DNA from: a virus
Lineage: Duplodnaviria; Caudoviricetes
Length of the DNA stretch: 54,277 nt
IMG/VR virus record: IMGVR_UViG_3300010373_000058
Coordinates: 1 to 54,277 of that record
Reading direction: 5' to 3' (one strand)
The notes beneath the pieces were generated by a model. The model ran no database searches and had not been told where the DNA came from. It saw only the letters and a list, made by a program, of their open reading frames with translations. Both the position numbers and the translations under genes were made by a program. Shown here one piece after another: positions 4,220 to 45,715 of this stretch. The number at the start of each line of letters is the position of its first letter. Within the stretch, counting starts at the first letter, position 1.

Positions 4220-4474
4220 TCATCCTCCTTGGTCGTTAGGGCGCTTATGTTTGAGAATCCATTTAGCGATCCCATTCATCGCGCTCTTGGTTCTTGGATC
4301 AATTTTGCGATAGTCGTTTACACCGTCGTCGTAGCCCTCGTCTTTCCTGACTTCTTCGAGCGCAGCACGCCAGATGGTTTTGGCCAGCGCCCTAACCACG
4401 CGCTGCATTGAACCGCCGCTTCGCTTGCGGTTCAGTTTGCGCCGGTCAATTCGGTGAGATGATTTCTTTTTCAT
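4220..4474 (-). CDS. Cassette-borne hypothetical protein
   Basis: Start lies inside attC-like site 4390-4513; cassette ends GTTAGGGCGCT/AGCGCCCTAAC. Confidence 0.6.
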   Translation of the reverse strand: MKKKSSHRIDRRKLNRKRSGGSMQRVVRALAKTIWRAALEEVRKDEGYDDGVNDYRKIDPRTKSAMNGIAKWILKHKRPNDQGG

Positions 4475-4513
4475 AGTTCCTTACAGCGTCGGTCAGTGTG
4501 CTTGTCGTTAGCC
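4390..4513 (+). mobile_element. attC-like site H
   Basis: CCCTAAC-CACGC-GCTGCATTGAACCG...CGGTCAGTGTGC-TTGTC-GTTAGCC. Confidence 0.7.
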
Positions 4514-4755
4514 ACCATTGGCCATGTAGGTTGTTTCGCCGCCCATTCCATGAGCTTCCACACTGCATCGCACCGTATGGATTCAGGTACATCTTCGTGT
4601 TCATGGGCTAGTGATGCCAGCAGGTCGAACCTTGAGTTTGCTATAGCGGGCCCATTCGGATGCGCCACTAGATACCAGCCGTTTTGTTCGTCCAGTATGG
4701 CGATGATTGGGTGGTTTTCTCCGAAAGTGGATAACAGGTCAGATGGATCGCTCAT
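4471..4755 (-). CDS. Cassette-borne hypothetical protein (start taken at MSDPSDLL)
   Basis: Reads into attC H and stops in its loop. Confidence 0.55.
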   Translation of the reverse strand: MSDPSDLLSTFGENHPIIAILDEQNGWYLVAHPNGPAIANSRFDLLASLAHEHEDVPESIRCDAVWKLMEWAAKQPTWPMVANDKHTDRRCKEL

Positions 4756-4917
4756 AGATGTTCTTTCCCGGCCATAGGCCAAAACCTTCGATTCCCGCAA
4801 TAGTAGGTCATGTGTCTGCCGACATGCCCGGCCTTTCGTTCGCACACGCGATATTTTCCTGGGTCGCGTTCATCGCTTCTCATTACCGTTGCCGACAGGC
4901 ATTTGCACGACCCGTCA

Positions 4918-5100
4918 TCAGACCGTGAACGTGACACTGTAACCCCCTTCTTCTCTCGCCTTGGTCTGGAGCTTCACGGGGACATAGGCCGCATAGATTA
5001 AAACGTCATGCCGTTCGTCATTGGTGGCAACCTTGAATGATTTTCGGCGCTCTATGAGCTTCCTGATTTGAGGCTTTGAAAGCGTTCTGCCGTTTTGCAT
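4918..5100 (-). CDS. Small putative DNA-binding protein
   Basis: KSFKV...L.T....GGYSV, similar to divergent neighbour 5200-5466. Confidence 0.5.
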   Translation of the reverse strand: MQNGRTLSKPQIRKLIERRKSFKVATNDERHDVLIYAAYVPVKLQTKAREEGGYSVTFTV

Positions 5101-5106
5101 GGTCGC

Positions 5107-5192
5107 AATTTGCGGCAGATTAACAGGCTTGTCAAAGGAATTTTAATTTTGTTTGAAAAAGTTCTTGCGCGGGGTCGCGGGACTGATAAATT
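5107..5192. promoter_or_regulatory. Divergent sigma70-type promoters, probably leaderless
   Basis: Minus: TTGACA(5135-5130)-17-CAAATT, ATG at 5100. Plus: TTGCGC(5165-70)-16-TAAATT(5187-92) with TG extension, ATG at 5200. Confidence 0.6.
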
Positions 5193-5199
5193 GCAACCC

Positions 5200-5466
5200 A
5201 TGAACCCGACCAACGGAGAAATCAAGATTGAGAAGAAAGTTCCACTGCCATCCAAGGGTGCGTATTCAAATTTGGGTGGTCGGAACAAAGGCAAAGGTAA
5301 GTGGCAAACGATTCTGTCTAAACTTCAAGTTGGAGATTCCTTTTTCGTTGGCAACCGTACTACGTCTCAGTTAAGCAGTTCGATTGCAAAGTCCAAAAAA
5401 CATTTTGATATAATACTGACAATGAGAACCGTCGAGGGCGGCGTGCGGATCTGGCGTGTCAAGTAG
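5200..5466 (+). CDS. Small putative DNA-binding protein
   Basis: IKIEKKVPLP...L.VGDSFFV...RTVEGGVRIWRV, a common small phage family. Confidence 0.7.
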   Translation: MNPTNGEIKIEKKVPLPSKGAYSNLGGRNKGKGKWQTILSKLQVGDSFFVGNRTTSQLSSSIAKSKKHFDIILTMRTVEGGVRIWRVK

Positions 5467-6110
5467 AACGAACATGAAACCGACCAGGGCACAAAGAAGG
5501 AAGCAATTGGACGACCAGCTTTTGAGGGCCGGATTCGAGCTTCAATGTGCCATCCGCGAAATGCGGTCGATACTAATTCAACTGGAAGATAAACAGCAAG
5601 TATGGACCCGTGCGGCAGATGCTCTTCGAGCGGCGCGAGAAGAACTCAAATCTAAGGCTTAATCTGTCAGCAACATGAGCGACGAAAATCAATTTGCATC
5701 AGGAGTAATTAGTATGGCGAGGAATTGTATCTCAGCCGTTCAGCTTATGCGTACAGGTAAATGGGATTTGAATGATGTGGAAAGATGGCTCAATGCCGTA
5801 ATCTCAAACGACTCGAATTATCTCCGGCAAGTTCTAATAGAACTCAAGCAAAGGAAGAAATGAACGACCTTGTAATCAGCGATGCCGCGATAAAGGCCGT
5901 CGAGAAATGTCGCGAGGTTTCATTTCATGTCCCGCTCATGCAGAAAGCCGTGCAACTGGCGATAAACGCGGAAGTGTCCCGAATAGCTGGGCCCGTCAAG
6001 GAGGCTGCTCAAATTGCATGGCTGGCACTGGACAGTCGTAATGAGAAAGAACTGGTTATCGCAAAATCAGTAATAGAAATCTGTCTTGAATATTGGAACT
6101 CGAATTGCAA

Positions 6111-6323
6111 ATGAAAACAACAGACGATGGAGGGCCAGCTTATCCTTGTGAGCACAGAAATAGTCCGGCGATAGAACTGTACCAAGGGATGTCTCTCCGA
6201 GACGCCTTTGCAATGGCGGTATTGCAGGCTTCCCATTGGCCAAGTTTAACCTCCTTTCCGGACATGGTAGCCAAAGAATGTTACCGGATGGCCGACGCCA
6301 TGATTGCCGAAAGAAAGAAATGA
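6111..6323 (+). CDS. Conserved phage hypothetical protein
   Basis: DGGPAYP...GMSLRDAFA...Y.MADAM motif. Confidence 0.75.
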   Translation: MKTTDDGGPAYPCEHRNSPAIELYQGMSLRDAFAMAVLQASHWPSLTSFPDMVAKECYRMADAMIAERKK

Positions 6324-6863
6324 AACAACCCGATTGGGCCGAGCCAATGGGCGAGAGTCAGGTGCATCCGTATGAGCGGGATGGAACCCATCCACGCATC
6401 ATTGACGATTCATCGGGGCGATGTGGACGACGATTCAGCGGACTGGGCTGGTTGAATCAGGGAATGACCGATGATGATGTTGAGGCAGAGAAGAAAGAGA
6501 GCGAGCAATGGTTCAAAGATCATGGCTGCGGAACAACGCCAGAAGAGATTGACCAATGGCTTGAACGAAATGGGTGGAGGAAACCATGAAACAAGATTAC
6601 GCAAAACAGTACCTTCCGCACGTCGACGCATTCGGTGATGGGGAGTTGCAAAGTAAGAGCATGGATGGACGTTGGATTGATTGGCCAGAAGGATTGCGCT
6701 GCGATTTTTCTGACCCTCCGGATTTCTACCGCCGACGACCGAAGAAGATTGAGTGTTGGGCGGTGGTGTCTCCCAATGGTGCTCAATACTTATTTAGTAT
6801 AGAAGACCACGCAAAGCAATGGGCAATCAACAACGGTCGCATCGTCCACTTGAAGGAGGTTGA

Positions 6864-7067
6864 ATGACCGTTTACGACAATCTTCCTTCGCCTCAACTTT
6901 CGCCTGATGCACTGGCCGAGTTTCGTAAGATTGTGAACGGAGACAGCAACATCGACGGTGAAGAGCTTGGCCGCGAGGGATTGGTTTATCGGCTGAGTTG
7001 GACGGAAAACAAATGGTCACTGACAAATTACGGGGTTCATCTGGCCAGGAGAATGACTGATTTATGA
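6864..7067 (+). CDS. Hypothetical protein
   Basis: ATGA-coupled early gene; its stop overlaps the start of tRNA-like RNA 2. Confidence 0.6.
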   Translation: MTVYDNLPSPQLSPDALAEFRKIVNGDSNIDGEELGREGLVYRLSWTENKWSLTNYGVHLARRMTDL

Positions 7068-7220
7068 GCGCGTGGCGAAATGTAAAGACGCTAGGACACG
7101 TAGAGACGGAACGGGACGTGTCAATCCTCCGTGGGGGTTTCTCGCACGGGAGTAACGCAAGGCGAAAGCCGGAAACTCTGGTTGCACCGACTCTTGCAGG
7201 TTCCAATCCTGCCGCGCTCA
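7066..7220 (+). ncRNA. tRNA-like RNA 2 (155 nt) with multibranched central domain
   Basis: GAGCGCG/CGCGCTC + A73; D arm TGGCGAAATGTAAAGACGC; T arm GCAGG-TTCCAAT-CCTGC; internal stems GACACGT/ACGTGTC, CCGTG/CACGG, GGC-GAAA-GCC. Confidence 0.75.
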
Positions 7221-7227
7221 CTGATTT

Positions 7228-7581
7228 ATGAAAGCAATCACCTGCGATGCCATTATCACTGGAATCAGCAGCCGGTCAGATCGCAGCTTGTCTCTACGAT
7301 TGGCTACTCCTGAATTGTCCGCAGAGGAATGCACCGCTTTTCACCAGATCAAGGGATTGAATTTGAAAGCCCTGTTTCAACCTTCTGATTCTGTTCCGCA
7401 GGAACTTGTCACCGTTCACAATGACCTGGATATTAAAACTCCATCTCAACGGCTGCGTTCGGTCATTTATATTCTTTGGAAACAAATCAAGCCGGATGAA
7501 ACCAATTTTGAACTGTTTTACCTCGATCAGATGAACGAGGTAATAGAACGATTTAAGGCCCAACTTGAACCACGGCCTTGA
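7228..7581 (+). CDS. Conserved phage hypothetical protein
   Basis: KTPSQRLRSVIY motif; in early operon. Confidence 0.65.
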   Translation: MKAITCDAIITGISSRSDRSLSLRLATPELSAEECTAFHQIKGLNLKALFQPSDSVPQELVTVHNDLDIKTPSQRLRSVIYILWKQIKPDETNFELFYLDQMNEVIERFKAQLEPRP

Positions 7582-7600
7582 AAGAAAGAACCAAAATACC

Positions 7601-8206
7601 ATGCACTGGAAAGAAAGCGGTCAATACGAAAACCCACCAGCAGGATCACATCTCGCTCGTTGCATTCATGTCATTGACATGGGCACTCAAAAACACACTT
7701 TCGGAGGGGAGGAATGGACAAGCCGGGACGTTAGAATTACCTGGGAATTGCCCACTGAACTAATGGAAGGCAAGTATAACCCGGAAGTAAAAGGTAAACC
7801 ATTCGCAGTCAGCAAAACATTCAAACAGTCGTTGCATAACGCTTCTTCGCTTAGAGGATTTCTTGAAAGCTGGCGCGGACGAAAGTTCACCAAGGAAGAA
7901 TTGTCCAGTTACGATCCTCGCAAGCTGCCAGGCGTTCCTTGCCGCATTACATTGATTGAGAACGGAGATTACATCAACGTGGATGGCATCGCCCCGATAG
8001 GCAGGAATGAGAAGTGTCCGGATCAGGTGAATCCATCTGTTTACTTCTCACTTGAACCTGACCAGTACAACCCCGGAGTCATGGCCGCTCTGACAGATAA
8101 GACAAGGGAAAAGATTCAGAACTCACCGGAGTTTGCTGCATTGATGAGATCAACCGAACCTGCCACAGAAAAGCCAAATGATACGGAAGACGATGTGGCA
8201 TTCTGA
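7601..8206 (+). CDS. Putative ssDNA-binding/replication accessory protein
   Basis: G.H.ARC...ID.GTQ...WEL...L..FLESWRG; acidic C-terminus EDDVAF typical of SSBs. Confidence 0.6.
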   Translation: MHWKESGQYENPPAGSHLARCIHVIDMGTQKHTFGGEEWTSRDVRITWELPTELMEGKYNPEVKGKPFAVSKTFKQSLHNASSLRGFLESWRGRKFTKEELSSYDPRKLPGVPCRITLIENGDYINVDGIAPIGRNEKCPDQVNPSVYFSLEPDQYNPGVMAALTDKTREKIQNSPEFAALMRSTEPATEKPNDTEDDVAF

Positions 8207-8689
8207 ACATGAACGAAACCTGGTACCATTGGATAATCGAATTCGTGCCGGAAGATTCCCACAATCCACGGAAACAAATCACGTTCGTTGGCACGATGGA
8301 AGAGGCTGAAAAGGAATCTGAGAGGAGTATGCCGGACTTCGAGGTTAACGAGGTGGTGTTCCAAAGACGCTGGAGTTACGCTGATTGTTGCGAACGATGC
8401 GGTGAGAGAATCAGGGGAAGGATAATCGTTATCGGTGGATACAGGCTGTGCGGATTGTGTTTCACGGAAAGTATGTTGACAGTCAGTTAAACGCAAAATG
8501 AACGAAACTGATGAGCACTGCAAAGACATCGCATGGGAGATGTTCTGCGCCGCGCACCCGGTAGAAGCGAACCAGCATAATCCAGATGGCTTCTGGAAAT
8601 ACTTTCATGCTCGCGCCCCGAACGTAACCCGAAGTAAAATGGTCGAGATGCTGAAACAGTGCGAAGAACCTCCAGCGAATGATTGAGAT

Positions 8690-9040
8690 ATGCAAATGAA
8701 CCCGCTCGCACGACAGGCCGCTGAGGATTGGTTTAAAGACCCACCTGGGAATCCAGACTGGTCTCCAAGCATTAGCCGGAAGGAATACATAGAAGACATG
8801 GTGAACCGTCTCGCCGGTCATTTGGAACCGTATTTGCGCAGGGAAGTATCGCATCTGGTGGAAGCGTTGGGCGTCATTATAGAGGAATACGAAGACAGGA
8901 AAATTCATTTTGGAGATGAATACCTTTGGAAGAAGAACGAAGATTCAGCGCAAGTAACAGTCGTGAAAGCCCTGCACGATTTCTACAATAACGCTGCCGG
9001 TGAGCCACTGCCGCCGACAGCGAACGTGAACGACAAATAG
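8690..9040 (+). CDS. Hypothetical protein terminating within attC A
   Basis: ORF track; stop TAG in the attC loop. Confidence 0.55.
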   Translation: MQMNPLARQAAEDWFKDPPGNPDWSPSISRKEYIEDMVNRLAGHLEPYLRREVSHLVEALGVIIEEYEDRKIHFGDEYLWKKNEDSAQVTVVKALHDFYNNAAGEPLPPTANVNDK

Positions 9041-9112
9041 AACCTATGAAAATCAAGCAAGCATCGAAACGGAAACGCGGGCGGCAGTTGCGCTCCACTG
9101 GCATTGTTAGCC
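8986..9112 (-). mobile_element. attC-like site A
   Basis: Plus: CAATAAC..TGCCGGTGAGCCACTGCCGCC...GGCGGCAGTTGCGCTCCACTGGCA..GTTAGCC. Confidence 0.7.
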
Positions 9113-9321
9113 TGCGTCGAAAAAGAAAGAACTGGCATAGCTGCCCGACGTGCCGCCAAGACATGCGTGAAGAACCGCACGACGGACTTAACGGCAAAGA
9201 CTGCCCGCAATGCGGACAGGGAATGTCATGGAGACGCGCAAAACGCAAGCAGCTAACGACCAAGCTCACCCCACTGCCGCTGGCGGGACGGGTGGAGCGC
9301 AGAAAGGACTTTGAAATATGA
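9046..9321 (+). CDS. Cassette-borne zinc-ribbon protein
   Basis: CPTC...CPQC; starts in attC A, stops in attC B. Confidence 0.65.
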   Translation: MKIKQASKRKRGRQLRSTGIVSLRRKRKNWHSCPTCRQDMREEPHDGLNGKDCPQCGQGMSWRRAKRKQLTTKLTPLPLAGRVERRKDFEI

Positions 9322-9379
9322 GCAAAACTTTGAACGTGAAAAGCGCGGCGGCAGTTGCGGGTGCAGCGCCTTGTACGGC
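9251..9379 (-). mobile_element. attC-like site B (degenerate R'' GCCGTAC)
   Basis: Minus: GCCGTAC-AAGGC-GCTGCACC...GGTGAGC-TTGGTC-GTTAGCT. Confidence 0.7.
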
Positions 9380-9731
9380 GATTCCGCGTGAGCATCTGCT
9401 GGCAATGCTGAAAGATGCCGCGTGGTATTCCGGCGGGCGCAGAGAATACGGCGACCATCAAGGCTACAGCTACGACGTGAACGAAGAAACGTCCCTGCGT
9501 GATGTGCTCTATCGTGACGAACCGTCGAACGCTCTAAAAAAATCTTCAACTATTTTTGACCGCATAAACATTGGTCGGAAATGGTGTCGGTGTCTGAAAA
9601 TCACAAACCCGACCCGCATGAACACGATGCGAAATCGTGTCAAGCCCCCGACTAAACATCAAGAATCATCAAGCGGGCGTGGACGGAACTGCTCAAAATC
9701 TCAAACGCAGAAAACCCATCTGGTAAAATAG
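9318..9731 (+). CDS. Cassette-borne hypothetical protein (C-terminus may be read-through past cassette end at 9530)
   Basis: Start in attC B loop; core-like GTCGAAC at 9524-9530. Confidence 0.4.
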   Translation: MSKTLNVKSAAAVAGAAPCTAIPREHLLAMLKDAAWYSGGRREYGDHQGYSYDVNEETSLRDVLYRDEPSNALKKSSTIFDRINIGRKWCRCLKITNPTRMNTMRNRVKPPTKHQESSSGRGRNCSKSQTQKTHLVK

Positions 9732-9737
9732 TAGCGT

Positions 9738-10142
9738 ATGAAACACATATACAACGACGGCGGCAGCGGGACGAAGAAGCAGCGCGACTGTGTTGTGCGT
9801 GCAATCGCAATCGCTACCGGAAAACCATACGCGGAAGTCCGCGACACCATCAACCATCTGGCCGATGAAGTCTATTTCGACGGCTCGGATGCGTCAGCCG
9901 GAGTCCACAAGCAACTCTACAAAGACTATCTCAAGTCCTTGGGCTGGGTGTGGACTGCAACCATGAGCATCGGCAGCGGATGCAAAGTCCACCTGCGCGA
10001 CGGAGAACTGCCGATGGGAACTCTCATCGTGTCAGTGTCGCGGCATCTGGTTGCCGTGATTGATGGCGTGATACACGACACCCACGACTGCTCACGCGAA
10101 GGAACAAGGTGCGTCTATGGCTACTGGCGCAAGGCGGCATAA
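9738..10142 (+). CDS. Conserved phage hypothetical protein
   Basis: YNDGG...DCVVRAIAIATG.PY...HL.AVIDG.I.DT.D; TGG-TAAAAT extended -10 just upstream. Confidence 0.75.
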   Translation: MKHIYNDGGSGTKKQRDCVVRAIAIATGKPYAEVRDTINHLADEVYFDGSDASAGVHKQLYKDYLKSLGWVWTATMSIGSGCKVHLRDGELPMGTLIVSVSRHLVAVIDGVIHDTHDCSREGTRCVYGYWRKAA

Positions 10143-10247
10143 CGGCGGGAACTGAGACACCGCCGAACTGCGGTGTCCGAACTCTAAAAAATCTTATGGC
10201 AAAAAAGAAAGCGATAACGGCGGTTGTCTCCAGTGACCCTGTTAGGC
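10137..10247 (-). mobile_element. attC-like site D
   Basis: Plus: GCATAAC..ACTGAGACACCGCCG...CGGCGGTTGTCTCCAGT..GTTAGGC. Confidence 0.75.
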
Positions 10248-10423
10248 CGCTGGGCATCCTGTCTGTAATAGGAGCAAGAAACCGCTCCGATAAACTCAGC
10301 GAACACGCTGTATGGGCGGAAGTCATAGTGACTGACGAGCAAGGCAAAGAATGGATATTTGATGTCTCTGCGTTCAACTATGCAATGCGGCCTAACGACC
10401 AGATCAGGCGCGTGGCCGATTAA
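10196..10423 (+). CDS. Cassette-borne hypothetical protein
   Basis: ATG inside attC D, stop inside attC E. Confidence 0.6.
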   Translation: MAKKKAITAVVSSDPVRPLGILSVIGARNRSDKLSEHAVWAEVIVTDEQGKEWIFDVSAFNYAMRPNDQIRRVAD

Positions 10424-10498
10424 CCCGCGCCTCCAAATTTATGAGCAAACATCGAACTGCTAAAGCCCCGCCACGTCGCCTGCATCGGATGGTTGGGC
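10390..10498 (-). mobile_element. attC-like site E
   Basis: Minus: GCCCAAC-CATCC-GATGCAGGCGACGTGGC...GCCACGCGCCTGATC-TGGTC-GTTAGGC. Confidence 0.8.
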
Positions 10499-10755
10499 CT
10501 ATCCGTCGTGACTGCGCCGTGCGCAAATACTCGACGTGTGGAAGTGCTGACCTCCACGAACTCGACTGGAGCAACTGGTTTCAAGACAACGGCTACATCC
10601 ATGTGCGCCGATTCCGTGCTGATGAAGGCGAAACGTGGCATCGAGTGTATCCGAAAAACATCAAAGGCCGAATCTGTAAACGTGTCGCCTGCGTAGATGG
10701 CTCGCCACACTGGTTGCACGATAGGCCCAACGAGAAAGCTGACCTACCCGGATGA
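10441..10755 (+). CDS. Cassette-borne hypothetical protein
   Basis: ATG in attC E, stop in attC F. Confidence 0.65.
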   Translation: MSKHRTAKAPPRRLHRMVGPIRRDCAVRKYSTCGSADLHELDWSNWFQDNGYIHVRRFRADEGETWHRVYPKNIKGRICKRVACVDGSPHWLHDRPNEKADLPG

Positions 10756-10831
10756 GCGCCGCCGAAACCATTCTATCGCCAGAGGACGTAGCCCGGCGCT
10801 CATCCGGGTTAGGTCCAGCGCCTTGTTACGC
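10725..10831 (-). mobile_element. attC-like site F
   Basis: Minus: GCGTAAC-AAGGC-GCTGGACCTAACCCGGATGAGCGCC...GGCGCTCATCCGGGTAGGTCAGC-TTTCTC-GTTGGGC. Confidence 0.85.
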
Positions 10832-11363
10832 CTCATTGTCGAGGGTGCGGGACATGCCAAACTCTGACACCTTCGATGTGCCATCCATCGCGGGCTTCGT
10901 GAAGAAGTATCTGATGAAATCACAAATCTCGGTGGACTGCTTCTCGCGCAACAAACGCTGGACAACCTACACCAACGACCTGAACCCGAACACGGCGGCG
11001 GAACACCACATGGACGCCGAGGACTTCCTGACGATGATCGCAGACAAGGGCATCGTGGCCGACCTGGTAATCTGTGACCCGCCATACTCGCCGCGCCAGG
11101 TAAAGGAGTGCTACGACTCCATCGGGCTGCCGATGAAGCAAACGGACGCGCTACTCGGCATGACGCGCAAACGGCTCAAGCGGCAAATCAACCGCCTCGT
11201 GCCAGTCGGCGGCGTGGTGCTGCACTTCGGATGGAACACGGTCGGCATGGGTAAAGGATGGGACATCGAAGAAATCATGCTCGTCTGCCACGGCAGCGAC
11301 CACAACGACACAATCTGTATGGCCGAAAGGAAAACGCCCGAATTACAGGAGACGTTCCTATGA
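10752..11363 (+). CDS. Cassette-borne amino-methyltransferase-like protein (putative DNA adenine MTase)
   Basis: VDCFSRN (motif I-like), TNDLNP, catalytic DPPY. Confidence 0.75.
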   Translation: MSAAETILSPEDVARRSSGLGPAPCYASLSRVRDMPNSDTFDVPSIAGFVKKYLMKSQISVDCFSRNKRWTTYTNDLNPNTAAEHHMDAEDFLTMIADKGIVADLVICDPPYSPRQVKECYDSIGLPMKQTDALLGMTRKRLKRQINRLVPVGGVVLHFGWNTVGMGKGWDIEEIMLVCHGSDHNDTICMAERKTPELQETFL

Positions 11364-11533
11364 GGCGTAACATAGCAATAGGCCAAACCGGGGAAACAAA
11401 CTCCAAATTAAAAGGCGCTCAAAGGAATCTCGCAAGCGTTGGTCTGACAATTCACTTCGCAAACGTGAGAAGTTGAGGGTTGAACGGTCGATTGCCAGAG
11501 AGCAGGATTTGGAAGATGAAATGAGGCTGTTGT

Positions 11534-11896
11534 ATGCCAACCTGGACAAGCGATGATCTCAGAGCCTATCAAGCTCGTGTTAAGAGGGTACGTTCCACCG
11601 AGCCAGAATGCCCTGAGAGGCGTTCACTGGTCGGTCCTGCACAGAGAGAAGCTAAGGGCTGGACTGGCGCTCAGAAGGGCACTGGAGAGCGAATGCGGGT
11701 CATTTTCACCGTCTATGCCCAGCGACCAAACGACTGGGACAACTACCGGCTCAAAGACGCTCAGGATTGCCTTGTCGAAGCTGGATTATTGGTTGACGAC
11801 AATTGGCGCGTTCTCGAAGGATTCGTCAGGTCTGAAAAGGCACACTCAAAAGAGGAGGAAAGGACCGAAATAGAGATTATCGGGCCAGTTTCCTGA
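11534..11896 (+). CDS. RusA-like Holliday junction resolvase
   Basis: RP.DWDN...KD..DCL..AG.L.DD acidic catalytic pattern. Confidence 0.65.
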   Translation: MPTWTSDDLRAYQARVKRVRSTEPECPERRSLVGPAQREAKGWTGAQKGTGERMRVIFTVYAQRPNDWDNYRLKDAQDCLVEAGLLVDDNWRVLEGFVRSEKAHSKEEERTEIEIIGPVS

Positions 11897-12218
11897 GTAT
11901 GTCTTTCAATGATTCACACATCTTGGCGTCCTCAAATGAGAAGCAACATATCCGTTCGGCCTGTGAAAGTGCCAGTTCAGCCTCGTTCCGCATCGCTAGC
12001 AGCTTGTTTTTCAGGTCTTCGTTTTGACGCCTGAGCATCTCAACGCCGTTTGATTCCCAAGAGGACAGGTCTTTACCTTCTGGAGACAGGATTTTCATTT
12101 TGTAGCCGAGTAGTAAAGGACAATTGCGATACCGAACAGGCACAGGACCAGGAGCCAGATGGTGATTGCCTCGGCGTCAAAGGACGCTTTCAGGCAGCGC
12201 AGGAATTCAGTTAGTTTC

Positions 12219-12253
12219 ATATACGAACAAATGTCGCCTAATCCTTGTTAGCT
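12219..12253 (+). repeat. attI-like array-leading site 1
   Basis: ATATACGAACAAATGTCGCCTAATCCTT-GTTAG; 26/28 identical to 13478-13505. Confidence 0.6.
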
Positions 12254-12535
12254 GCTTGCGTGTTTTGCCACTTCCGCCGCCCATTCCTTGAGCGTGCTTT
12301 TCTCGTTGAGCCGTTCGATCCATTCTTCCGGGATGTCACGGCAGATTTGCTCCTCGACGTGCATGGCGATTTCCACATGGTCGAGACTGTCCAGGCCGAG
12401 CGTTTCAGTCGTATCGTTCTCGGTGGCACTTTCGCTGTGATTTTCATGTATCCATTCGAGCACCGCAGTTAACAATTCAGTGCAGGACAACTCGGTCGGC
12501 ATCTTTGGATTAGGCGTTGCGTCTTGGTTTTTCAT
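12248..12535 (-). CDS. acpP: Cassette-borne acyl carrier protein
   Basis: LGLDSLDHVEIAMHVEE with the phosphopantetheine Ser; acidic; ATG in attC I. Confidence 0.8.
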   Translation of the reverse strand: MKNQDATPNPKMPTELSCTELLTAVLEWIHENHSESATENDTTETLGLDSLDHVEIAMHVEEQICRDIPEEWIERLNEKSTLKEWAAEVAKHASS

Positions 12536-12598
12536 AGGTCTTTTTGCTTTTGATAGCACTCGGTTTTACCCGCCGAGTGCCTGACTTCACCGTTCGGC
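12467..12598 (+). mobile_element. attC-like site I
   Basis: AGTTAAC-AATTC-AGTGCAGGACAACTCGG...CCGAGTGCCTGACT-TCACC-GTTCGGC. Confidence 0.75.
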
Positions 12599-12828
12599 GA
12601 TTCGCCCGTCCAGTTCCACGGCACGGTCAGGTTGCCCATGTCGTCACACGGAATTGTTGCATCTATTTCCGAGTTGTATGGCTGACACCATTCATCGCAT
12701 CGCGGGCAGTTCTCACCGCTTGGCGGTAGCGGGTCATGGCCCGGCGACTTCCACCGATGCTCACATTCCGGGCAGTGAAAGAAACGCCAACCAATCCGAA
12801 CAACGGGATTCGTCTCAGGGGATTTCAT
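12532..12828 (-). CDS. Cassette-borne zinc-ribbon protein
   Basis: CPEC...CPRC; bounded by GTTCGGC (12592) and TCCGAAC (12795). Confidence 0.6.
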   Translation of the reverse strand: MKSPETNPVVRIGWRFFHCPECEHRWKSPGHDPLPPSGENCPRCDEWCQPYNSEIDATIPCDDMGNLTVPWNWTGESPNGEVRHSAGKTECYQKQKDL

Positions 12829-13477
12829 CCAACGCCTTTCTCAGGGCTTCACATTGCGAAGCTATAAAGAGGTAAAAATTCAATGCTTGCAGACCATCAA
12901 TTCTGTCCAATAACTCTTTTGCCGCCCGTTTCAAATCCAATTGCGCCTCGCTCCTGGCCCTGATCTGAGCCTTGAGCGATTCGATTTCGTCCTGTTCGTC
13001 CATGATGGGTGAGGCTATCTGTTCGATAAACTTCTCCATCGGTTCGTTTCTCAGGAACTCGGTGTCACCGGCCCTGAGTGCTGCTGCGGTTTTCATTGGT
13101 TTCATTTTGGTGATGGAAGTTTGCTGCCATAGTAAACGAATCGTTCAGAATCGTGTGCGTATCTTTTCACGATCTTCTCCAAGAAGCTGCGCTTGCTTTT
13201 CAGTCCATCCGGCAGGAACATTCGGAAGCCGCACTTGCGGACTGCTGAGCACACGGCATGGACATCATCAGCACCAGGTCCACGTCGGTCAGGGTTTGTC
13301 CACTCGAATCGGATTGGCGCTCGTTCACATTTAGGACATTTCATAATCGTGATTCCATGAGATCAGCGGCCAGATTGGCTATATCATCCCTCGTGGCAGC
13401 GTCCGGGTGAATGGACAGGGTTGGCACGAGCAAGAGCCAGTCGGCATTTCTCCAATCAGGTTTCATTTTGGTTGGTG

Positions 13478-13512
13478 ATATACGAACAAGTGTCGTCTAA
13501 TCCTTGTTAGGC
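13478..13512 (+). repeat. attI-like array-leading site 2
   Basis: ATATACGAACAAGTGTCGTCTAATCCTT-GTTAGGC. Confidence 0.6.
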
Positions 13513-13698
13513 GACTTTGCACTCATCGCATGTGTCCTCACCGTTCATCACGTCCACCCAGGCGGTTTTACAGACGGTGCATTTCGCCTCTCGGACAGCT
13601 TTCGATTCTTTCGCCTGTTGCTCTGCGATGTAGTCGTCCATCTCGCAGTCGCGGGCAAACTCTTGGTCTTCGATTGATGGGCCATTTGGATTGCGCAT
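13507..13698 (-). CDS. Cassette-borne small CxxC protein (start uncertain)
   Basis: CTVC...CDEC; stop TAA lies in the core site. Confidence 0.5.
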   Translation of the reverse strand: MRNPNGPSIEDQEFARDCEMDDYIAEQQAKESKAVREAKCTVCKTAWVDVMNGEDTCDECKVA

Positions 13699-13705
13699 AT
13701 TCGTC

Positions 13706-13798
13706 GCCGAAGCATGCGCTCCAGCGAACCACGCCATCGCGCTCTTGTTGCATTGTTACGGTTTGCTCGGCGTGGTCGCTGAGCTTGGGTCGTTATGC
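13706..13798 (+). mobile_element. attC-like site J (R'' AAC>AAG)
   Basis: GCCGAAG-CATGC-GCTCCAGCGAACCACGCC...GGCGTGGTCGCTGAGC-TTGGGTC-GTTATGC. Confidence 0.75.
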
Positions 13799-14031
13799 CG
13801 ACAGGCCATGCGAAAGAGTTCCGTTGAGATACCCCACACATTGGAAGCAGTTCCGGCGTCACCTTTTTTCTCTAGCGCCTTTGAGATTTCGAGCAGCTTT
13901 TCGGAGAGTTTGAACAGCTCATCATTGTCGGCATAACCCGGCGCTGGAGGCAGCGGCTTGCCGCCCGGTGCGTTCAGCCATTCCTCTACTTCGGGAGACT
14001 CGTTGTAGTATTTTTCGATTTCAGGATTCAT
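13756..14031 (-). CDS. Cassette-borne hypothetical protein
   Basis: ATG in attC K, stop in attC J. Confidence 0.65.
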   Translation of the reverse strand: MNPEIEKYYNESPEVEEWLNAPGGKPLPPAPGYADNDELFKLSEKLLEISKALEKKGDAGTASNVWGISTELFRMACRHNDPSSATTPSKP

Positions 14032-14058
14032 CGCCGTGCCTCAGCTTGTTAGTTCTGT
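13931..14058 (+). mobile_element. attC-like site K
   Basis: GCATAAC-CCGGC-GCTGGAGGCAGCGGC...GCCGTGCCTCAGC-TTGTTA-GTTCTGT. Confidence 0.75.
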
Positions 14059-14303
14059 GGCTTCACCCACGAGAGTCTTGCGTGCTCTACGCAGGCGATT
14101 TCGCAGATTTGATTTATCACGAGGTCGCACGCTTCGGCTGTATCTTCCGGGTCTTGCCCTTCGATGTCTTGGTTCTGGTATGCCTCGCAGAGCGTGAAGA
14201 TTCGCTCCAACGCCGCCACAGAATCACACACAGCAGCCAACAGCGCCTCACTTGTTGGCTGGCCAACGCCGTTGGCGTTGGCGGATGTCGCTTTGTCAAT
14301 CAT
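14049..14303 (-). CDS. Acidic hypothetical protein (probable cassette)
   Basis: Bounded by GTTCTGTGGC (14052) and GCCACAGAAT (14215). Confidence 0.55.
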   Translation of the reverse strand: MIDKATSANANGVGQPTSEALLAAVCDSVAALERIFTLCEAYQNQDIEGQDPEDTAEACDLVINQICEIACVEHARLSWVKPQN

Positions 14304-14629
14304 GGCTTGTAACTTTCGATTTCATCGGCCCGGCGGAACAGTTCACGGCCCTGATGCCGCAACCAGGCCGCCGCATGTTTTCTTTCTTCAAGGCTGGCAT
14401 CGCCGTTGTAAAGATACCCGAGTTGGCCGGAGATGATAGCCCCTTTGCTTTCGCTGGCAATCGCCCTGAGCCGGCGCTTGAAGTTTTCACCAGGATCACA
14501 TTCGCAAATCGCGGCTATGTCCACGGCAGTTTTCCAGCCGCCACTGTTCCGGAGCAATCTACGCAACCATTGGACATCATCATCCGAAACAACCGGAGCC
14601 TTGCCCGTCAGCAGGTCAAGCTGTGTCAT
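14300..14629 (-). CDS. Putative winged-helix protein
   Basis: W.TA.DIA...KRRLRAIA...IISGQ.GY. Confidence 0.55.
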   Translation of the reverse strand: MTQLDLLTGKAPVVSDDDVQWLRRLLRNSGGWKTAVDIAAICECDPGENFKRRLRAIASESKGAIISGQLGYLYNGDASLEERKHAAAWLRHQGRELFRRADEIESYKP

Positions 14630-15682: not shown

Positions 15683-15687
15683 GGGGG

Positions 15688-36233: not shown

Positions 36234-36258
36234 GTGAACACTAACCTTACACACGACC

Positions 36259-36960: not shown

Positions 36961-36961
36961 A

Positions 36962-39466: not shown

Positions 39467-39476
39467 AAGTGACACC

Positions 39477-42466: not shown

Positions 42467-42534
42467 CGCTGAACTTGCAGACGATGGACTTCCAGAAGAC
42501 ATAAAGGAAGACGAACCCGGAGACGAAGGCGAAG

Positions 42535-44883
42535 ATGAGTGACCTCAGTGAAAAAACAATTCTCGTGGTGGACAGTGGGATGTTCCTTCCGTTCGCTCTT
42601 AGGATGTCCGATTCATTCGGGCGTGTGTTGTTCTGGAATCCTGTGGAACAGGCGTCCCCAAGGGTTCACGAGGCGCAGATAGGAGAAGGATTCGATGAAA
42701 TCATCGTGGTTGAATCAATCTTCTCAGAACTGGACGATGTGGATGTGTTCGCTTTTCCCGACTGCATCCATCCTGCGTTGCAGAACTGGTTGAGGGAACA
42801 GGGAAAGGCTGTGTGGGGAAGCGGTGTGGCGGTCAATCTCGAATGGAACCGGGAACTGTTCCGCATTCACATGGAAGACCTGGGCCTTCCGGTTCACCCC
42901 TACCACATCGCCCACGGGCTGTCCGACCTGACCGATTATCTCAAGGACAAGAAAGACCAGTACATCCGCATCAGCCGGTATCGAGGCAACGGAGAGACAT
43001 GGCGCTGGATTGACTCCGAACTGTCCTCGAATCGCCTGGACGAACTCGCCATCGAATACGGACCTATTCAAGAGACGATAGATTTCCTGGTTGAATCGGC
43101 ATTCGACGCGAAGGAGGTTGGCTATGACGGGTTCTTTTACGGTGGAAGATTTCCCGGTTCGGCTTTTCATGGAATTGAGAGAAAGGACAAAAGCTACTTC
43201 GGAGCACTGTGCGATTACGATGACCTTCCAAAACCACTAAAGACCGTCACCGATTCAATCGGACCGCTTCTGGAAAAGATGGGATACGCAAACAACTTTC
43301 ACGCGGAAGTCAGGGTGACGCCGGACGGTACTCCCTACTTCACGGACCCTACCTGTTTCAGCGAAGATACAGAGATTTTAACGGACTCTGGATGGAAGTT
43401 CTTCAAAGAGTTAAGTGGTGATGAACGTGTTTGTACTCTTGAGCCAAACACCAACCATATTGAGTACCACAAACCTTCCCGGCATGTCAGATATTGGTAC
43501 TCGGGTCAAATGTTGGAAATTGCAAACAGAAAACGAGATTTGGAGCTTTTAGTGACTCCCGGTCATTCTGTATGGGGAAGGACGAAACCGCACAAGCCAT
43601 TGTCAGAATTCAGAGCGGATTCGCTTCCTCCACAATTGTCAATTCCAAGAACTGGTATTTGGAACGGGGTGGAAGTGTCTGATTTTGTACTTCCCGCTTA
43701 CTCTAACAGATGGAGTAGCGGAAAAGGAAAACACATCGAAAAAACGATTTACCTTCCAGCCGTGACCATTCCAATGGATTCCTGGATCAGGTTCCTCGGG
43801 GTTTTCTTATCAGAGGGTCACACCAGCAGGTGGCAGGTTGTAATTACCCAAACAAAATATCGTGAAAAGATATGGGAGATACTGAAGACCCTCCCATTCG
43901 ACTGGAGGCCGTATCCGAAGGGATTCAGAACAAGCAGTATTCAATTGTCTTCGTTCCTTGCAAGTACGGGATTAAGGCACGAGAGGGGGATACATCCGTT
44001 TTTAAAGATGCTGAGCAGCCGTCAAATAAACTTGTTTCTTGATTCCTATTGTCTTGGTGATGGTTCAAATCGTAGAGGCAACAGACTGATAAGTACCACT
44101 TCCAAAAACACTGCTAATGACATTCAGGAGTTGTTTCTAAAGGCTGGGAGTGTTGCGTCCATTAGGACTATTACAAAGGCCGGTTCGGAGGTGGCCATAT
44201 CAAACGGTAAATACATCACCAAGCATGATTCACTTCTTGTTCGGGAGCGAATCAGATTCAAGGATTTCTGGTTGGAGGGTGGAAATCGAAAACATCTCTA
44301 CATAAATCCAGTTTCTTACCAAGGAATGGTGTACGACGTAACAGTAAATAATCATATTTTGTACGTCAGGAGAAACGGAAAGCCCTGTTGGTCTGGAAAC
44401 TGTCGCCACGCAAGCCCAGCAGGAGAACCCTTGCTTGAAGCGTGCTCAAATCTTCCCGAAGTCGTGTTGGCTGCGGCGCATGGTGAATACATCGAACCGG
44501 AGTGGGAATCGAAGTTCGTGGCTCAGGTGTTGATTGACCACAAGGACGACGGCAAGGAACACTGGCGAACGGTCAGAGTGCCCGACCTGCGATGGGTTAA
44601 ACTTTACAACGCATCCAAGGTTGGAAACGACCTTTACGCAATCCCGCCACTGCCACATTCCTGCGCGTCCATAGGATCGGTGCTGGGTCAGGGGAACACA
44701 CCGGAAGAAGCCGTTGAAGAACTCAAGAAACACGCGGCTGAACTTGAAGGACAGGACGTTGTCGTGGACACCGCATCGCTGGCTGCGGCCATTGCTGAGA
44801 GTGATTCTGATGAACCCGGTTCGGTCGAAATGGGCGGGGCAGACTCTCAGGAAGCCGTGGAACTGGCAAGAGACGAAGATTAA
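42535..44883 (+). CDS. PurD-like ATP-grasp ligase with intein
   Basis: VWGSG...LE.NR; YFTDPT|CRHASP aligns with PurD E.N.RFGDP; spliced length 433 aa. Confidence 0.7.
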   Translation: MSDLSEKTILVVDSGMFLPFALRMSDSFGRVLFWNPVEQASPRVHEAQIGEGFDEIIVVESIFSELDDVDVFAFPDCIHPALQNWLREQGKAVWGSGVAVNLEWNRELFRIHMEDLGLPVHPYHIAHGLSDLTDYLKDKKDQYIRISRYRGNGETWRWIDSELSSNRLDELAIEYGPIQETIDFLVESAFDAKEVGYDGFFYGGRFPGSAFHGIERKDKSYFGALCDYDDLPKPLKTVTDSIGPLLEKMGYANNFHAEVRVTPDGTPYFTDPTCFSEDTEILTDSGWKFFKELSGDERVCTLEPNTNHIEYHKPSRHVRYWYSGQMLEIANRKRDLELLVTPGHSVWGRTKPHKPLSEFRADSLPPQLSIPRTGIWNGVEVSDFVLPAYSNRWSSGKGKHIEKTIYLPAVTIPMDSWIRFLGVFLSEGHTSRWQVVITQTKYREKIWEILKTLPFDWRPYPKGFRTSSIQLSSFLASTGLRHERGIHPFLKMLSSRQINLFLDSYCLGDGSNRRGNRLISTTSKNTANDIQELFLKAGSVASIRTITKAGSEVAISNGKYITKHDSLLVRERIRFKDFWLEGGNRKHLYINPVSYQGMVYDVTVNNHILYVRRNGKPCWSGNCRHASPAGEPLLEACSNLPEVVLAAAHGEYIEPEWESKFVAQVLIDHKDDGKEHWRTVRVPDLRWVKLYNASKVGNDLYAIPPLPHSCASIGSVLGQGNTPEEAVEELKKHAAELEGQDVVVDTASLAAAIAESDSDEPGSVEMGGADSQEAVELARDED
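43354..44400 (+). mobile_element. Intein with LAGLIDADG endonuclease
   Basis: CFSEDTEILT..GW, VTPGH, FLGVFLSEG, FLDSYCLGDG, VYDVTV..H.LYVRRNGK..WSGN|C. Confidence 0.92.
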
Positions 44884-45135
44884 ACTTGCGTAAGTCAGAC
44901 CCGTTTGTAAGTTACGCATGTGACCGACAACCCCTGCGAGCTTCCAGTTTACGCCCGACCCCCCGGATGCGGTCCTACTCCAAAGGGGATACCGATTGTC
45001 GAGAAACCGCACAAGATGGCGAAGGGCATCGTCAAGGTATCTAAGTTGATGAAGGGCTTGAGCAAGACCATGCCGCTCAAGAGAAGCCTTGTGAAACGAA
45101 TCAAGGCGTACCCGAAGACCAACAAGAAGCGGTAT

Positions 45136-45223
45136 TTCTAACAACGAAGTCAGGCACGGCGGACCTGACGCACCGAATTAACCCGCAGCGCAACCCGCCG
45201 CTGCCTGCACTGACTGGTTAGGA
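45136..45223 (-). mobile_element. attC-like site L
   Basis: Minus: TCCTAAC-CAGTC-AGTGCAGGCAGCGGCGG...CCGCCGTGCCTGACT-TCGTT-GTTAGAA. Confidence 0.75.
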
Positions 45224-45230
45224 GTCCTTT

Positions 45231-45713
45231 ATGAGTAGAAGTGGATATAGCGACGAATGTGAAAATCTCGAACTGTATCGAGCATCTGTGGATCGTGCGC
45301 TGCACGGAAAACGCGGACAAGCGTTCCTGCGTGAACTCGCCGCCGCGATGGACGCAATGCCTGAGAAAGTGCTCATCGCTGGAGAACTGGTGAGCGAAAA
45401 AGGCGAGTGCTGCACCATCGGCGTGGTGTGCAAAACTCGCCAACTGGATGTCAGCCGCGTGGACTACTACGATCCTGATTCCGTCGCCAAGGCAATCGGC
45501 GTAGCGCGTTCGATGGCTGCCGAAATCGAACACATGAACGACGAGTGGGGAACGGCAAGTGAACTGCCGAACGAGCGATGGAATCGGATGCGTAAATGGG
45601 TGTCCGACAACCTCGCGGCTCAGACTCCTAAAGACGAGATCAGGCACACCGGAACAGAGACTCACAGTGAACAAGAAAACAAAGGGCCGGTGTTGCCTGA
45701 ATCGAAGCGTTAG
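45231..45713 (+). CDS. Cassette-borne conserved phage protein
   Basis: SRSGYSD...GKRGQAFLREL..A.DAMP.K.LI...NDE...RW.RMR.WV; reads through attC M. Confidence 0.75.
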   Translation: MSRSGYSDECENLELYRASVDRALHGKRGQAFLRELAAAMDAMPEKVLIAGELVSEKGECCTIGVVCKTRQLDVSRVDYYDPDSVAKAIGVARSMAAEIEHMNDEWGTASELPNERWNRMRKWVSDNLAAQTPKDEIRHTGTETHSEQENKGPVLPESKR

Positions 45714-45715
45714 AA
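45626..45715 (-). mobile_element. attC-like site M (R' GTT>TTT)
   Basis: Minus: TTCTAAC-GCTTC-GATTCAGGCAACACCGG...CCGGTGTGCCTGATC-TCGTC-TTTAGGA. Confidence 0.7.

Follow-up and report, generated by a model that had tools for sequence, protein, structure and literature searches.

How does a phage come to carry small accessory genes between hairpins that resemble integron recombination sites, and which enzyme could have put them there? The question is raised by a 54,277-bp viral genome (Duplodnaviria; Caudoviricetes), the whole of IMG/VR record IMGVR_UViG_3300010373_000058, which we call the window. It has no terminal repeats, its completeness is estimated at 96% by CheckV, and its genes include a DnaB-like helicase, two DNA methyltransferases and long open reading frames (ORFs) of structural size. 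Integrons are known as bacterial gene-capture devices, and the mosaicism of phage genomes is usually ascribed to homologous and illegitimate recombination. The window and its relatives point to site-specific integron recombination that acts on the phage genes themselves, which is of interest for research on integrons and on the evolution of phage genomes. We found that the window carries about ten small accessory genes as integron-type cassettes, together with two putative docking sites, and has no integrase of its own. The explanation that we regard as likely is that these are attC sites, attI-type sites and integron gene cassettes that are moved by an integron integrase (IntI) supplied in trans.

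Detection of attC sites

Sites were searched for with a covariance model (R1) for which 25 attC-like sites were aligned; these came from six further viral contigs (L018, L019, L028, L029, L030 and L032; L numbers denote contigs and loci, G numbers records) and in no case from the window. The structure of the model was set by hand, and its training sites come from phage arrays, not from a curated attC set; it represents them as read on the gene-sense strand. Applied to the whole length and both strands with the filters off, R1 gave eleven matches at E <= 0.01, and these are exactly the eleven hairpins (11/11) to which the first-pass annotation had attributed an attC architecture and for which it had proposed a covariance-model check. 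The scores range from 54.9 to 21 bits (E = 8.8e-12 to 2.9e-3), and the next match has E = 0.19. The five separate arrays described in that annotation were recovered as well, with attC-type sites in five places, but the four hairpins in the minus-strand gene block turned out to be longer than they had been marked.

On an authentic class 1 integron with intI1 and the cassettes aadA12 and lnu(F) (L039; plasmid NZ_MW390538.1), R1 recovers both attC sites, that of aadA12 with 47.7 bits and that of lnu(F) with 39.2 bits, and has no further match at E < 0.01 over the 12.9 kb of the locus. Applied to bacterial bins from several phyla, it finds sites upstream of intI, with 26/26 matches on the intI strand. 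R1 hence behaves as a general and strand-specific detector of attC sites. An Rfam scan of the whole window (E <= 1) gave no matches and is uninformative, no Rfam family having matched these sites.

A strict scan that combined an AAC box, a GTT box, at least 5/7 box pairs and a strong inner duplex found five sites on the + strand, against a mean of 0.47 in shuffled sequences (maximum 2; 30 shuffles). Across the eleven aligned sites the inner stem is 92% paired, with double changes in 13/15 pairs. The outer helix formed by the R boxes, as it stands in the array, is 71% paired, because both boxes of an attC site within an array stem from different cassettes. AAC and GTT are both present in 8/11 sites, the exceptions being sites 9251 (GTA), 45626 (AAA) and 13706 (CTT instead of GTT in the distal box, bottom strand); the four variable box positions are frequently off the R/Y consensus.

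The two ends of most units are reverse complements of each other. Five such pairs are exact over 10-12 nt (Table 1), as had been quoted in the first-pass annotation (5/5 at the places given), and three more are near-pairs. The ends of unit 9257-10142 do not pair, so that this is probably no simple cassette. Exact inverted repeats of at least 12 nt, 60-1500 apart, are only mildly enriched as a class (9 versus a shuffle mean of 4.8), while those starting with GTT number 3 versus a mean of 0.17 (maximum 1) in 60 shuffles. At cassette 45142-45631 the ends 45219/45623-45632 pair save for the last base, and TTCTAAC at 45136 pairs with GTTAGAA at 45709; this is the footprint of one cassette inserted into one resident attC site. 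Judged by sequence, all eleven hairpins seem to be genuine integron attC recombination sites.

Other structures were considered and set aside. A 118-nt imperfect hairpin at 1724-1841 (-30 kcal/mol), flanked by AAC and GTT, is matched by the strict scan and is unlisted by R1 at E <= 10. Two inverted repeats that start with GTT, one of 12 nt, exact, which flanks a 334-bp stretch (16669/17002), and one of 10 nt (5917/6326), have no R1 match beside them and may be due to chance or to something else.

Absence of an integrase gene and content of the cassettes

A profile search of the window with TIGR02249 (integron integrase) gave no matches, and neither an intI gene nor a remnant of one was seen. 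The general recombinase searches, which comprised PF00589 (tyrosine recombinases) and PF00239 (serine recombinases), gave none at E <= 1. Together with the completeness estimate, these results agree with the earlier reading that this apparently complete genome has no tyrosine recombinase. A complete integron, in which intI adjoins attI and a cassette array, is thus not present in the window. Arrays 2 (five sites), 4 (two) and 5 (two) each group two or more attC sites, with no intI nearby, and correspond to CALINs, i.e. clusters of attC sites lacking an integron integrase (as the term is defined in Cury et al. 2016, PMC4889954), while arrays 1 and 3 have one attC each.

PHROG families are matched by 3/10 of the scanned cassette or unit ORFs and resistance families by 0/10, in line with the earlier suggestion of phage-like cargo and no resistance genes. 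Among the particular products proposed, the methyltransferase is confirmed by its PHROG match (Table 1); the zinc ribbon (ORF 9046-9321) has Pfam matches that all lie under their cut-offs, and the ACP was not confirmed. A second methyltransferase, which is not in a cassette, is found at 15688-16299 (-; phrog_757, E = 4.9e-67), and the phage therefore has one methyltransferase in its backbone and one in a cassette (10854-11363).

Hairpin geometry and coding polarity

In the bottom strand of attC, which is the one recombined, AAC stands in the R' box and the extra-helical bases are on the other arm (passages of Nivina et al. 2016, PMC5027507). In the folds and R1 alignments of the window sites the central spacer is unpaired, the loop varies and extra-helical bases stand on the arm opposite AAC. 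Counted along the stem of the phage sites on the gene-sense strand, 3 bp are followed by a bulge and 6 bp by a second one, both bulges being on the arm distal to AAC. On this strand the extra unpaired bases are mostly C and then T, 6 bp apart; G and A occur on the complementary strand only. The first-pass annotation, which described an arm with extra G and A, was hence right that extra bases exist, but not about their identity and arm. The aadA12 attC (sense or top strand) has two extra bases in its 5' arm, after 3 bp and 6 bp further, which is the same layout.

The R1 matches in the window are on the + strand for the seven sites in plus-strand gene blocks and on the - strand for the four in the minus-strand block, and the R1 matches to class 1 attC sites are on the strand opposite the cassette genes, that is, the bottom strand. 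Three criteria, namely where the extra bases stand, on which strand R1 matches authentic attC sites and how the sites of relatives are oriented to intI, show the gene-sense strand of the window to be the attC bottom strand, the opposite of bacterial arrays. Consequently, each hairpin would have its canonical crossover, AA|C, on its 5' side as seen on the gene-sense strand. An insertion by IntI at G|TT had been proposed earlier; the footprint is indeed of the integron cassette type, but for the seven plus-strand sites the crossover would be AA|C, which corresponds to G|TT on the other strand. In the direction of the gene, a cassette consists of C, hairpin, GTTnnnn, ORF and nnnnAA.

Scored by the longest ORF, which is a crude measure, the polarity of the ten intervals in the window is bottom for seven, top for one and ambiguous for two. 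Twelve phage IntI loci (described below) gave 46 bottom, 11 top and 19 ambiguous (76 intervals), whereas five bacterial-type loci gave 9 top, 1 bottom and 1 ambiguous (11 intervals). By this reversed coding polarity the cassette pool of the phages differs from that of bacteria.

At sites 8986, 9251, 10137 and 10390 the start codon of the next ORF is inside the hairpin loop, so that translation starts within the cassette itself and no more than a short C-terminal tail enters the next unit. The loops of these four sites hold stop codon, ribosome site and start codon (at 8986, the stop of ORF 8690-9040 and the start of ORF 9046-9321), as would be the case if the hairpins were transcription terminators or RNA structures for translational coupling, with no role in recombination. 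Moreover, a weak terminator activity has been attributed to attC sites (Qi et al. 2023, PMC9892861). As the sole function of the hairpins we nevertheless consider this highly improbable, since it leaves unexplained the AAC and GTT boxes, the complementarity of the unit ends, the compensating changes and the match to authentic attC sites, as well as the linkage to intI and the junction polymorphisms reported below. Termination or translational coupling may well be a second role of the same hairpins.

attI-like sites

In the contig of L019 (record G004), which encodes an IntI, 30 nt lie between the first cassette and intI, and two copies of this sequence occur on the + strand of the window (12215-12247 and 13478-13506). 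Each copy runs into a G|TT, beyond which the sequence is unrelated; among the three copies, similarity likewise ends after G|TT. With up to 3 mismatches the motif has two matches in the window, where 0.11 are expected by chance. An attI site is expected to separate the 5' end of intI from the first cassette, and such a position holds for the G004 homologue and for many IntI phage loci, which have before intI a consensus of an AAC box, a short spacer, an ATTAGGC-type box and TGTTCGYATAT. In the window the motif is followed by genes other than intI; after the first copy, the next downstream gene (- strand) starts at the position where intI starts in the relatives. The window core and the attI1 core (from L039) have in common GTCGCC, an adjacent TAA and the G|TTAG crossover, which is a resemblance only. 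We suggest that both window sequences are attI-type docking sites; they were missed in the first-pass annotation.

A search of IMG/VR with the 18-nt core of the motif returned five stretches, and the extended motif is common only to the G004 contig and absent in the other four; outside G004, IntI was found in 0/3 examined records with the core. The AAC box and flank at the head of array 2 (11364-11400), which are conserved in the metagenome contig L187 described below, may be a secondary or attI-type insertion site. Compared with the attI-like motif, the flank to the right of the methyltransferase cassette scores 26-27.5, which is not significant given 95th and 99th percentiles of 25 and 29 in random windows.

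In several integrons of Verrucomicrobiota bins (L095, L097, L098, L099, L104 and L105), a TTGGACA...TGTCCAA palindrome and repeated GGTTCGTATAT-type boxes precede intI, and these may be a repressor operator and integrase-binding repeats, respectively. The attI-like motif of the phages retains only the TGTTCGYATAT part of this sequence.

Integron integrases encoded by phages

The L019 contig (30.3 kb) is a phage fragment, with genes for the major head protein, portal, protease and large terminase. Its IntI of 317 amino acids matches TIGR02249 with 267.8 bits (cut-off 265) over positions 2-314 of 315. It is 38% identical to IntI1 over the full length, with the R, K, H-x-x-R, H and Y motifs aligned and no gap across the KYP...W.W.W.FP stretch, which we take to be the IntI signature. 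The gene adjoins an attC array, about 370 bp downstream of the nearest attC, and its start codon is 30 nt past the AAC box that ends the first cassette.

Relatives of this IntI were found in 47 further IMG/VR records, giving 48 loci in all (L045-L092; G004 and G011-G057). TIGR02249 is matched in 47/47 of the further records and above its cut-off in 35/47, and about 24 of the relatives are 50-71% identical to the G004 protein. Of the records with a completeness of 90% or more, all ten match TIGR02249; direct terminal repeats are present in five records. Many viral records, including genomes with terminal repeats, hence encode an integron integrase of their own.

Over the 48 intI loci R1 found 183 sites (E <= 0.01), of which 174 are on the intI strand and about 164 upstream of intI; the orientation of intI relative to attC is therefore the regular one. 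The largest number of sites beside an intI in one locus is about 14 (L059). In the three IntI genomes that were fetched in full, the sites are clustered beside intI, and one of these genomes has two more about 9 kb off. A 4.1-kb fragment (L065, 2333-4042) has a partial intI followed downstream by five attC sites of the same strand, while in nearly all other loci the sites are upstream.

The regular orientation also bears on the possibility that another system which recognises hairpins, such as an HUH single-strand transposase or a novel phage recombinase, moves the units. The searches of the window with PF00589, PF00239 and TIGR02249 found no recombinase, and the hairpins are not always inherited together with an ORF, both of which would fit such a system. 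The sites, however, have the full geometry of attC, and 174/183 of the R1 matches lie on the intI strand beside IntI genes, and we regard a system of this kind as extremely improbable.

The window is connected with these loci by its sites. Three window attC sites have homologues in intI-linked arrays, with 77-91% nucleotide identity over most or all of their length. For instance, attC 10390 has a counterpart at L051 6249-6352 (87% over 106 nt), which belongs to the attC array adjoining intI in a 75-kb genome with terminal repeats, and attC 45136 is 91% identical to L054 7682-7758 and 89% identical to L064 7430-7504, both of which are intI-proximal attC sites. The matches also include that of attC 9251 (77%, L064 5521-5667), and a fourth site, attC 8986, is 78% identical over about 100 nt to attC sites upstream of intI in L084 and L086. 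The window thus seems to be part of a largely undescribed pool of phages that swap cassettes and of which some members encode their own IntI.

The first-pass annotation proposed that the integron integrase of the host shuffles the phage genes. The cassettes in five places and the lack of a recombinase encoded by the phage itself agree with this, but the host as the source of the enzyme is unsupported. The clade of phage-encoded IntI, whose arrays hold homologues of window attC sites and of one cassette, is at least as good a candidate as the enzyme of the host.

Bacterial integrons and the host

In GTDB, with one genome per species, 14 IntIs are 55-69% identical to the phage IntI, and 12/14 of them are in Verrucomicrobiota bins; the next best GTDB IntI from any phylum has 41% identity or lower. 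A Verrucomicrobiota host, as the first-pass annotation had implied, is plausible for the window phage on this indirect route, since the closest bacterial relatives of the phage IntI are in Verrucomicrobiota bins. Two of the 14 (L105, a contig of 928 kb, and L106) have arrays with bacterial polarity.

One could suppose that the arrays are pieces of a host chromosomal integron captured by the phage, as in Vibrio phages. Phages with fragments of sedentary chromosomal integrons have been reported (Qi et al. 2023, PMC9892861), and the linked IntI clade also occurs in large Verrucomicrobiota contigs such as L105. Against this stand the different polarities (9/11 top in bacterial loci, 7/10 bottom in the window), the distribution of the sites over five separate loci and the membership of three cargo ORFs in PHROG families. 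Moreover, at the nucleotide level the phage IntI arrays hold the homologues of window attC sites (E <= 1e-8), while 80 GTDB loci give two weak matches of about 76%. Capture of host DNA is in our opinion very unlikely.

The closest GTDB match to the phage IntI (69%) is on a 15.7-kb contig binned as Polyangiaceae (L093), with six attC sites and small, tightly packed ORFs; of its intervals, three are top, two bottom and one ambiguous. It looks like a phage contig that was placed in a bacterial bin.

Exchange of cassettes and junctions in relatives

Homologues of the methyltransferase ORF were found in 17 IMG/VR loci. The methyltransferase unit is about 90% identical at the nucleotide level to L018 and L019, only over 10804/10813-11366/11371, and ends in the AAC box; no other window proteins are shared with L018 or L019. 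The paired end boxes of this unit differ among the three copies (window, L018 and L019) and change together in each. Hairpins of the same kind lie between the small ORFs of L018 and L019, and attC 10725 is homologous to L018 5166-5275 and, in L019, to the hairpin that lies upstream of this methyltransferase. A second cassette is common to L058 and L065, about 90% identical from exactly G|TT to AA|C. Its neighbours differ: in L065 there is an attC site on either side of it, and in L058 it borders on the attI-like sequence next to intI. In addition, ORF 10441-10755 has a protein homologue (42%) between two attC-like sites in L032. Cassettes therefore appear to have been exchanged between unrelated phages.

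Junction differences were also observed between the window and close relatives. L187, a metagenome contig of 1,153 bp, is 82% identical to window 11368-12252. On the left, the homology begins inside the AAC box (TAA|C) that ends the methyltransferase cassette, and a different unit of 165 bp, whose ends are 11-nt exact complements, is in the place of the methyltransferase. On the right, the homology stops at 12252, 5 nt past the G|TT (G|TTAGC) of attI-like site 1, and after about 50 other bases the contig rejoins the window at 12942. Both breakpoints are at predicted crossover points. As regards the check proposed in the first-pass annotation, namely whether relatives break at the cores, L187 differs from the window exactly at these two points.

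Logan contigs of four runs were also compared with the window, the parts not covered being uninformative; two bridging contigs of run X5, a freshwater metagenome with a variant 90-95% alike, and the starts of matches were used. One X5 contig joins 7221 to 9253 via 28 other bases and thus breaks within the AAC box of attC 9251; the matches of other X5 contigs begin at 9255, in the same box. The other bridging contig joins 13111 to 14307 and is thus without attI-like site 2, both its cassettes and the neighbouring small genes. Taken together, the homology breakpoints of L018/L019, L058/L065, L187 and X5 lend indirect support to recombination at AA|C of the bottom strand.

A relative of the phage backbone was also looked for. 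The search of IMG/VR with the DnaB-like helicase found none. That with ORF 7565-8206 found G010 (L174), a complete 56.7-kb phage with terminal repeats and no IntI, which has 30-57% protein identity over about 12 genes and is too distant for a comparison of breakpoints. It has attC-type sites at L174 10197-10326 (E = 3e-5) and 10729-10856 (E = 2.7e-10). The records of L029, L030 and L032 (completeness 23-85%) have 6-15 sites each by the strict scan and no IntI. One of these, G001 (L030; 21.6 kb, CheckV 23%), has about 13-15 attC-like sites by that scan within 10 kb (5332-15361) and no IntI match.

Proposed origin and mobility of the cassettes

As the window encodes no integrase, an integron integrase supplied in trans would have put the cassettes in. 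We propose the following course of events, which is in line with the canonical chemistry of integrons. The attC bottom strand, here the gene-sense strand, would fold into a hairpin with extra-helical bases, and IntI would cleave within the AAC of the R' box; the partner in the exchange would be a further attC or the G|TT of attI. Each array is inside a one-directional phage operon, with a ribosome site and a start codon often in the hairpin loop. The IntI could come from an IntI-encoding phage of the same cassette pool or from the chromosomal integron of the host, which is probably a Verrucomicrobiota bacterium, and the cassettes are probably still excisable and replaceable by such an enzyme. 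The class and strand of the sites, the exchange of cassettes between unrelated phages, the junction polymorphism of the relative and the linkage of the attC and attI families to phage intI are apparent from the sequences; ongoing recombination in the window phage, the supplier of IntI and the reason for the reversed polarity are what we infer.

Several observations weigh against this explanation. The coding polarity is reversed relative to the canonical one, and a promoter of the bacterial Pc type could therefore not express the cassettes. The hairpin is not always inherited together with its ORF: between L058 and L065, and between L018 and the window, only the part from G|TT to AA|C is conserved and the flanking hairpins differ, which is at odds with a simple one-strand model, although recombination of both strands or turnover of hairpins could lie behind it. 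At least 4/11 sites have degenerate boxes (GTA at 9373, AAA at 45630-45632, GAAG at 13709-13712 and CAATAAC at 8986), as would fit decay. The X5 variant that lacks 13112-14306 has its breakpoints at gene borders and not at att boxes. As regards methods, the E-values of R1 are rough owing to a short calibration, and a loose scan for AAC...GTT plus a duplex shows no excess (39 sites versus 22-43 in shuffles), so that the strict threshold alone parts signal from chance. L187, with its 1,153 bp, is too short to tell whether this relative has intI, and the evidence comes from assembled contigs, which cannot show circular junctions and give no direct view of recombination.

Some of the same observations would suit relic arrays, that is, real integron parts that were built elsewhere, arrived by homologous or illegitimate recombination and are no longer recombined here. 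In addition to the degenerate boxes and the X5 deletion, the missing intI (or remnant of it) and the unpaired ends of unit 9257-10142 agree with this, and entry into phage genomes by off-target homologous or illegitimate recombination has been suggested before (Qi et al. 2023, PMC9892861). However, five pairs of unit ends are still perfect over 10-12 nt, two junctions of L187 are exactly at crossover boxes on a backbone diverged by 18%, and the sites are in five places and both transcription directions with a constant polarity relative to the genes. We hence regard relic arrays as unlikely, and hold to cassettes that are moved by an integrase supplied in trans.

A wider proposal would be a phage-native class of integron, mainly in Verrucomicrobiota phages, with intI, a conserved attI and up to about 14 bottom-strand cassettes, which would be read towards intI within a phage operon and often have their start codon in the attC loop; phages without an integrase, such as the present one, would retain attI and attC sites at several loci and draw on the same pool via IntI acting in trans from co-infecting phages, prophages or the host. 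We consider this proposal evenly balanced between right and wrong. If it is true, integron recombination would be a general engine for the exchange of accessory genes, anti-restriction methyltransferases included, between unrelated phages. And if recombination is active, it becomes testable how phages without a recombinase gain and lose counter-defence genes, where cassettes originate and whether phages transport cassettes between bacteria.

Comparison with described systems

The sections of Qi et al. (2023, PMC9892861) that bear on phages report 17 CALINs, some in virulent phages, from a survey of 10,705 NCBI phage genomes with IntegronFinder and HattCI. They mention five methyltransferases among the phage cassettes, recombination by IntI1 of 5/6 phage attC sites tested and integron-integrase genes in phages, and the headings name as examples Vibrio chromosomal integron fragments, a P1 phage with a class 1 mosaic and a prophage of Shewanella. 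The novelty implied by the first-pass annotation was accordingly overstated, in that attC clusters without an integrase in virulent phages, methyltransferase cassettes and recombination by IntI1 had already been published there. The window resembles those CALINs in its attC clusters without intI, methyltransferase cargo, divergent attC directions and implied trans-acting integrase. As far as these sections describe them, it differs from them in number and kind of sites (11 sites in five places and two attI-type sites, versus at least two sites in each published CALIN), in the link by homology to phage IntI, in the occurrence of the same cassette in unrelated phages and in its bottom-strand genes. 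In the main texts of open-access articles in PMC and bioRxiv we found no report of a phage-native IntI clade, of attI in phages without an integrase or of reversed cassette polarity.

Complete integrons, i.e. the class 1 integron L039 and those of Verrucomicrobiota bins (L105, L106, L121 and L130), have in common with the phage loci the geometry of attC, a bottom strand that lies on the intI strand, an attI core beside the 5' end of intI and cassettes bounded by G|TT, but the window is without intI. The cassette genes of the bacterial loci are on the top strand and read away from intI (9/11), whereas in the phage arrays they are mostly on the bottom strand and read towards intI.

Promoter-early stem-loop (PeSL) cassettes of T4-type phages are small accessory genes flanked by repeated stem-loops and shuffled between phages, which is ascribed to homologous recombination between the repeated promoter and stem-loop sequences. 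Unlike these, each unit of the window has its own complementary pair of AAC and GTT boxes, and the sites match attC models.

A departure from the textbook gene orientation also characterises the system defined in PMC13323075. In the phage loci, unlike in that system, the orientation of intI relative to attC is regular, as in class 1, and it is the ORF within the cassette that is inverted.

Features of the window

The features discussed above are listed in Table 1.

Table 1. Positions of attC sites, attI-like sites and cassettes in the window (R1, covariance model for attC)
Feature	Position	Strand	Remarks
Cassette 1 (single)	4236..4507	-	ORF 4220-4474 (-); G|TT 4235|4236 and 4507|4508 on top strand; ends 4235/4396 are 11-nt exact complement
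attC, array 1	4390..4513	-	bottom strand is -; R1 29.0 bits, E 2.9e-5
attC, last of array 2	8986..9112	+	R1 23.5 bits, E 6.8e-4; degenerate AAC-side box
Cassette	8992..9256	+	ORF 9046-9321, small Cys-rich protein; ends 9106-9115/9249-9257 pair save for one indel
attC	9251..9379	+	R1 33.3 bits, E 2.4e-6; box distal to AAC is GTA, not GTT
Unit with two ORFs	9257..10142	+	ORFs 9318-9731 and 9738-10142; ends unpaired
attC	10137..10247	+	R1 28.9 bits, E 3e-5; also matched by strict scan
Cassette	10143..10395	+	ORF 10196-10423, ATG within attC loop; ends 10241/10396 are 10-nt exact complement
attC	10390..10498	+	R1 49.4 bits, E 2.1e-10
Cassette	10396..10730	+	ORF 10441-10755, ATG within attC loop; ends 10492/10731 are 12-nt exact complement
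attC	10725..10831	+	R1 54.9 bits, E 8.8e-12
DNA methyltransferase cassette	10731..11370	+	ORF 10854-11363; phrog_11619, E 2.7e-36; ends 10825/11371 are 12-nt exact complement (13 with one extra base)
Terminal AAC box and conserved flank, head of array 2	11364..11400	+	crossover 11370|11371
attI-like site 1	12215..12247	read on + (top)	crossover 12247|12248; motif shared with G004 and other IntI phages
Cassette, array 3	12248..12592	-	ORF 12238-12447; start 12247-12255 and box 12465-12473 pair with one mismatch
attC, array 3	12467..12598	-	R1 26.2 bits, E 1.4e-4
attI-like site 2	13478..13506	read on + (top)	crossover 13506|13507; shared motif
Cassette	13507..13792	-	ORF 13507-13737; between attI-like G|TT and G|TT of attC 13706-13798; AAC-side box degenerate
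attC	13706..13798	-	R1 39.2 bits, E 7.5e-8; top-strand 5' arm has extra C and A
Cassette	13793..14052	-	ORF 13756-14031; ends 13792/13937 are 12-nt exact complement
attC, last of array 4	13931..14058	-	R1 27.7 bits, E 6e-5
attC	45136..45223	+	R1 49.4 bits, E 2.1e-10; AAC box holds stop codon of ORF 44920-45141
Cassette	45142..45631	+	ORF 45231-45713; phrog_25637, E 1.4e-30
attC	45626..45715	+	R1 21.0 bits, E 2.9e-3; box AAA instead of AAC; folded

Some further details concern single entries of the table. ORF 12238-12447 has no family match in Pfam or PHROGs. ORF 9738-10142 of the two-ORF unit matches phrog_3754, and its 17 homologue loci in IMG/VR have 0 or 1 strict attC-like sites each. The attC site 13706 shares 76% identity with L102, a contig that was assigned to a Verrucomicrobiota bin.

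Between arrays 2 and 3, ORF 11534-11896 (+) encodes a RusA-like protein, its match to PF05866 being just under the cut-off (21.4 versus 22.8 bits), and a counterpart with 91% protein identity is present in contig L187.

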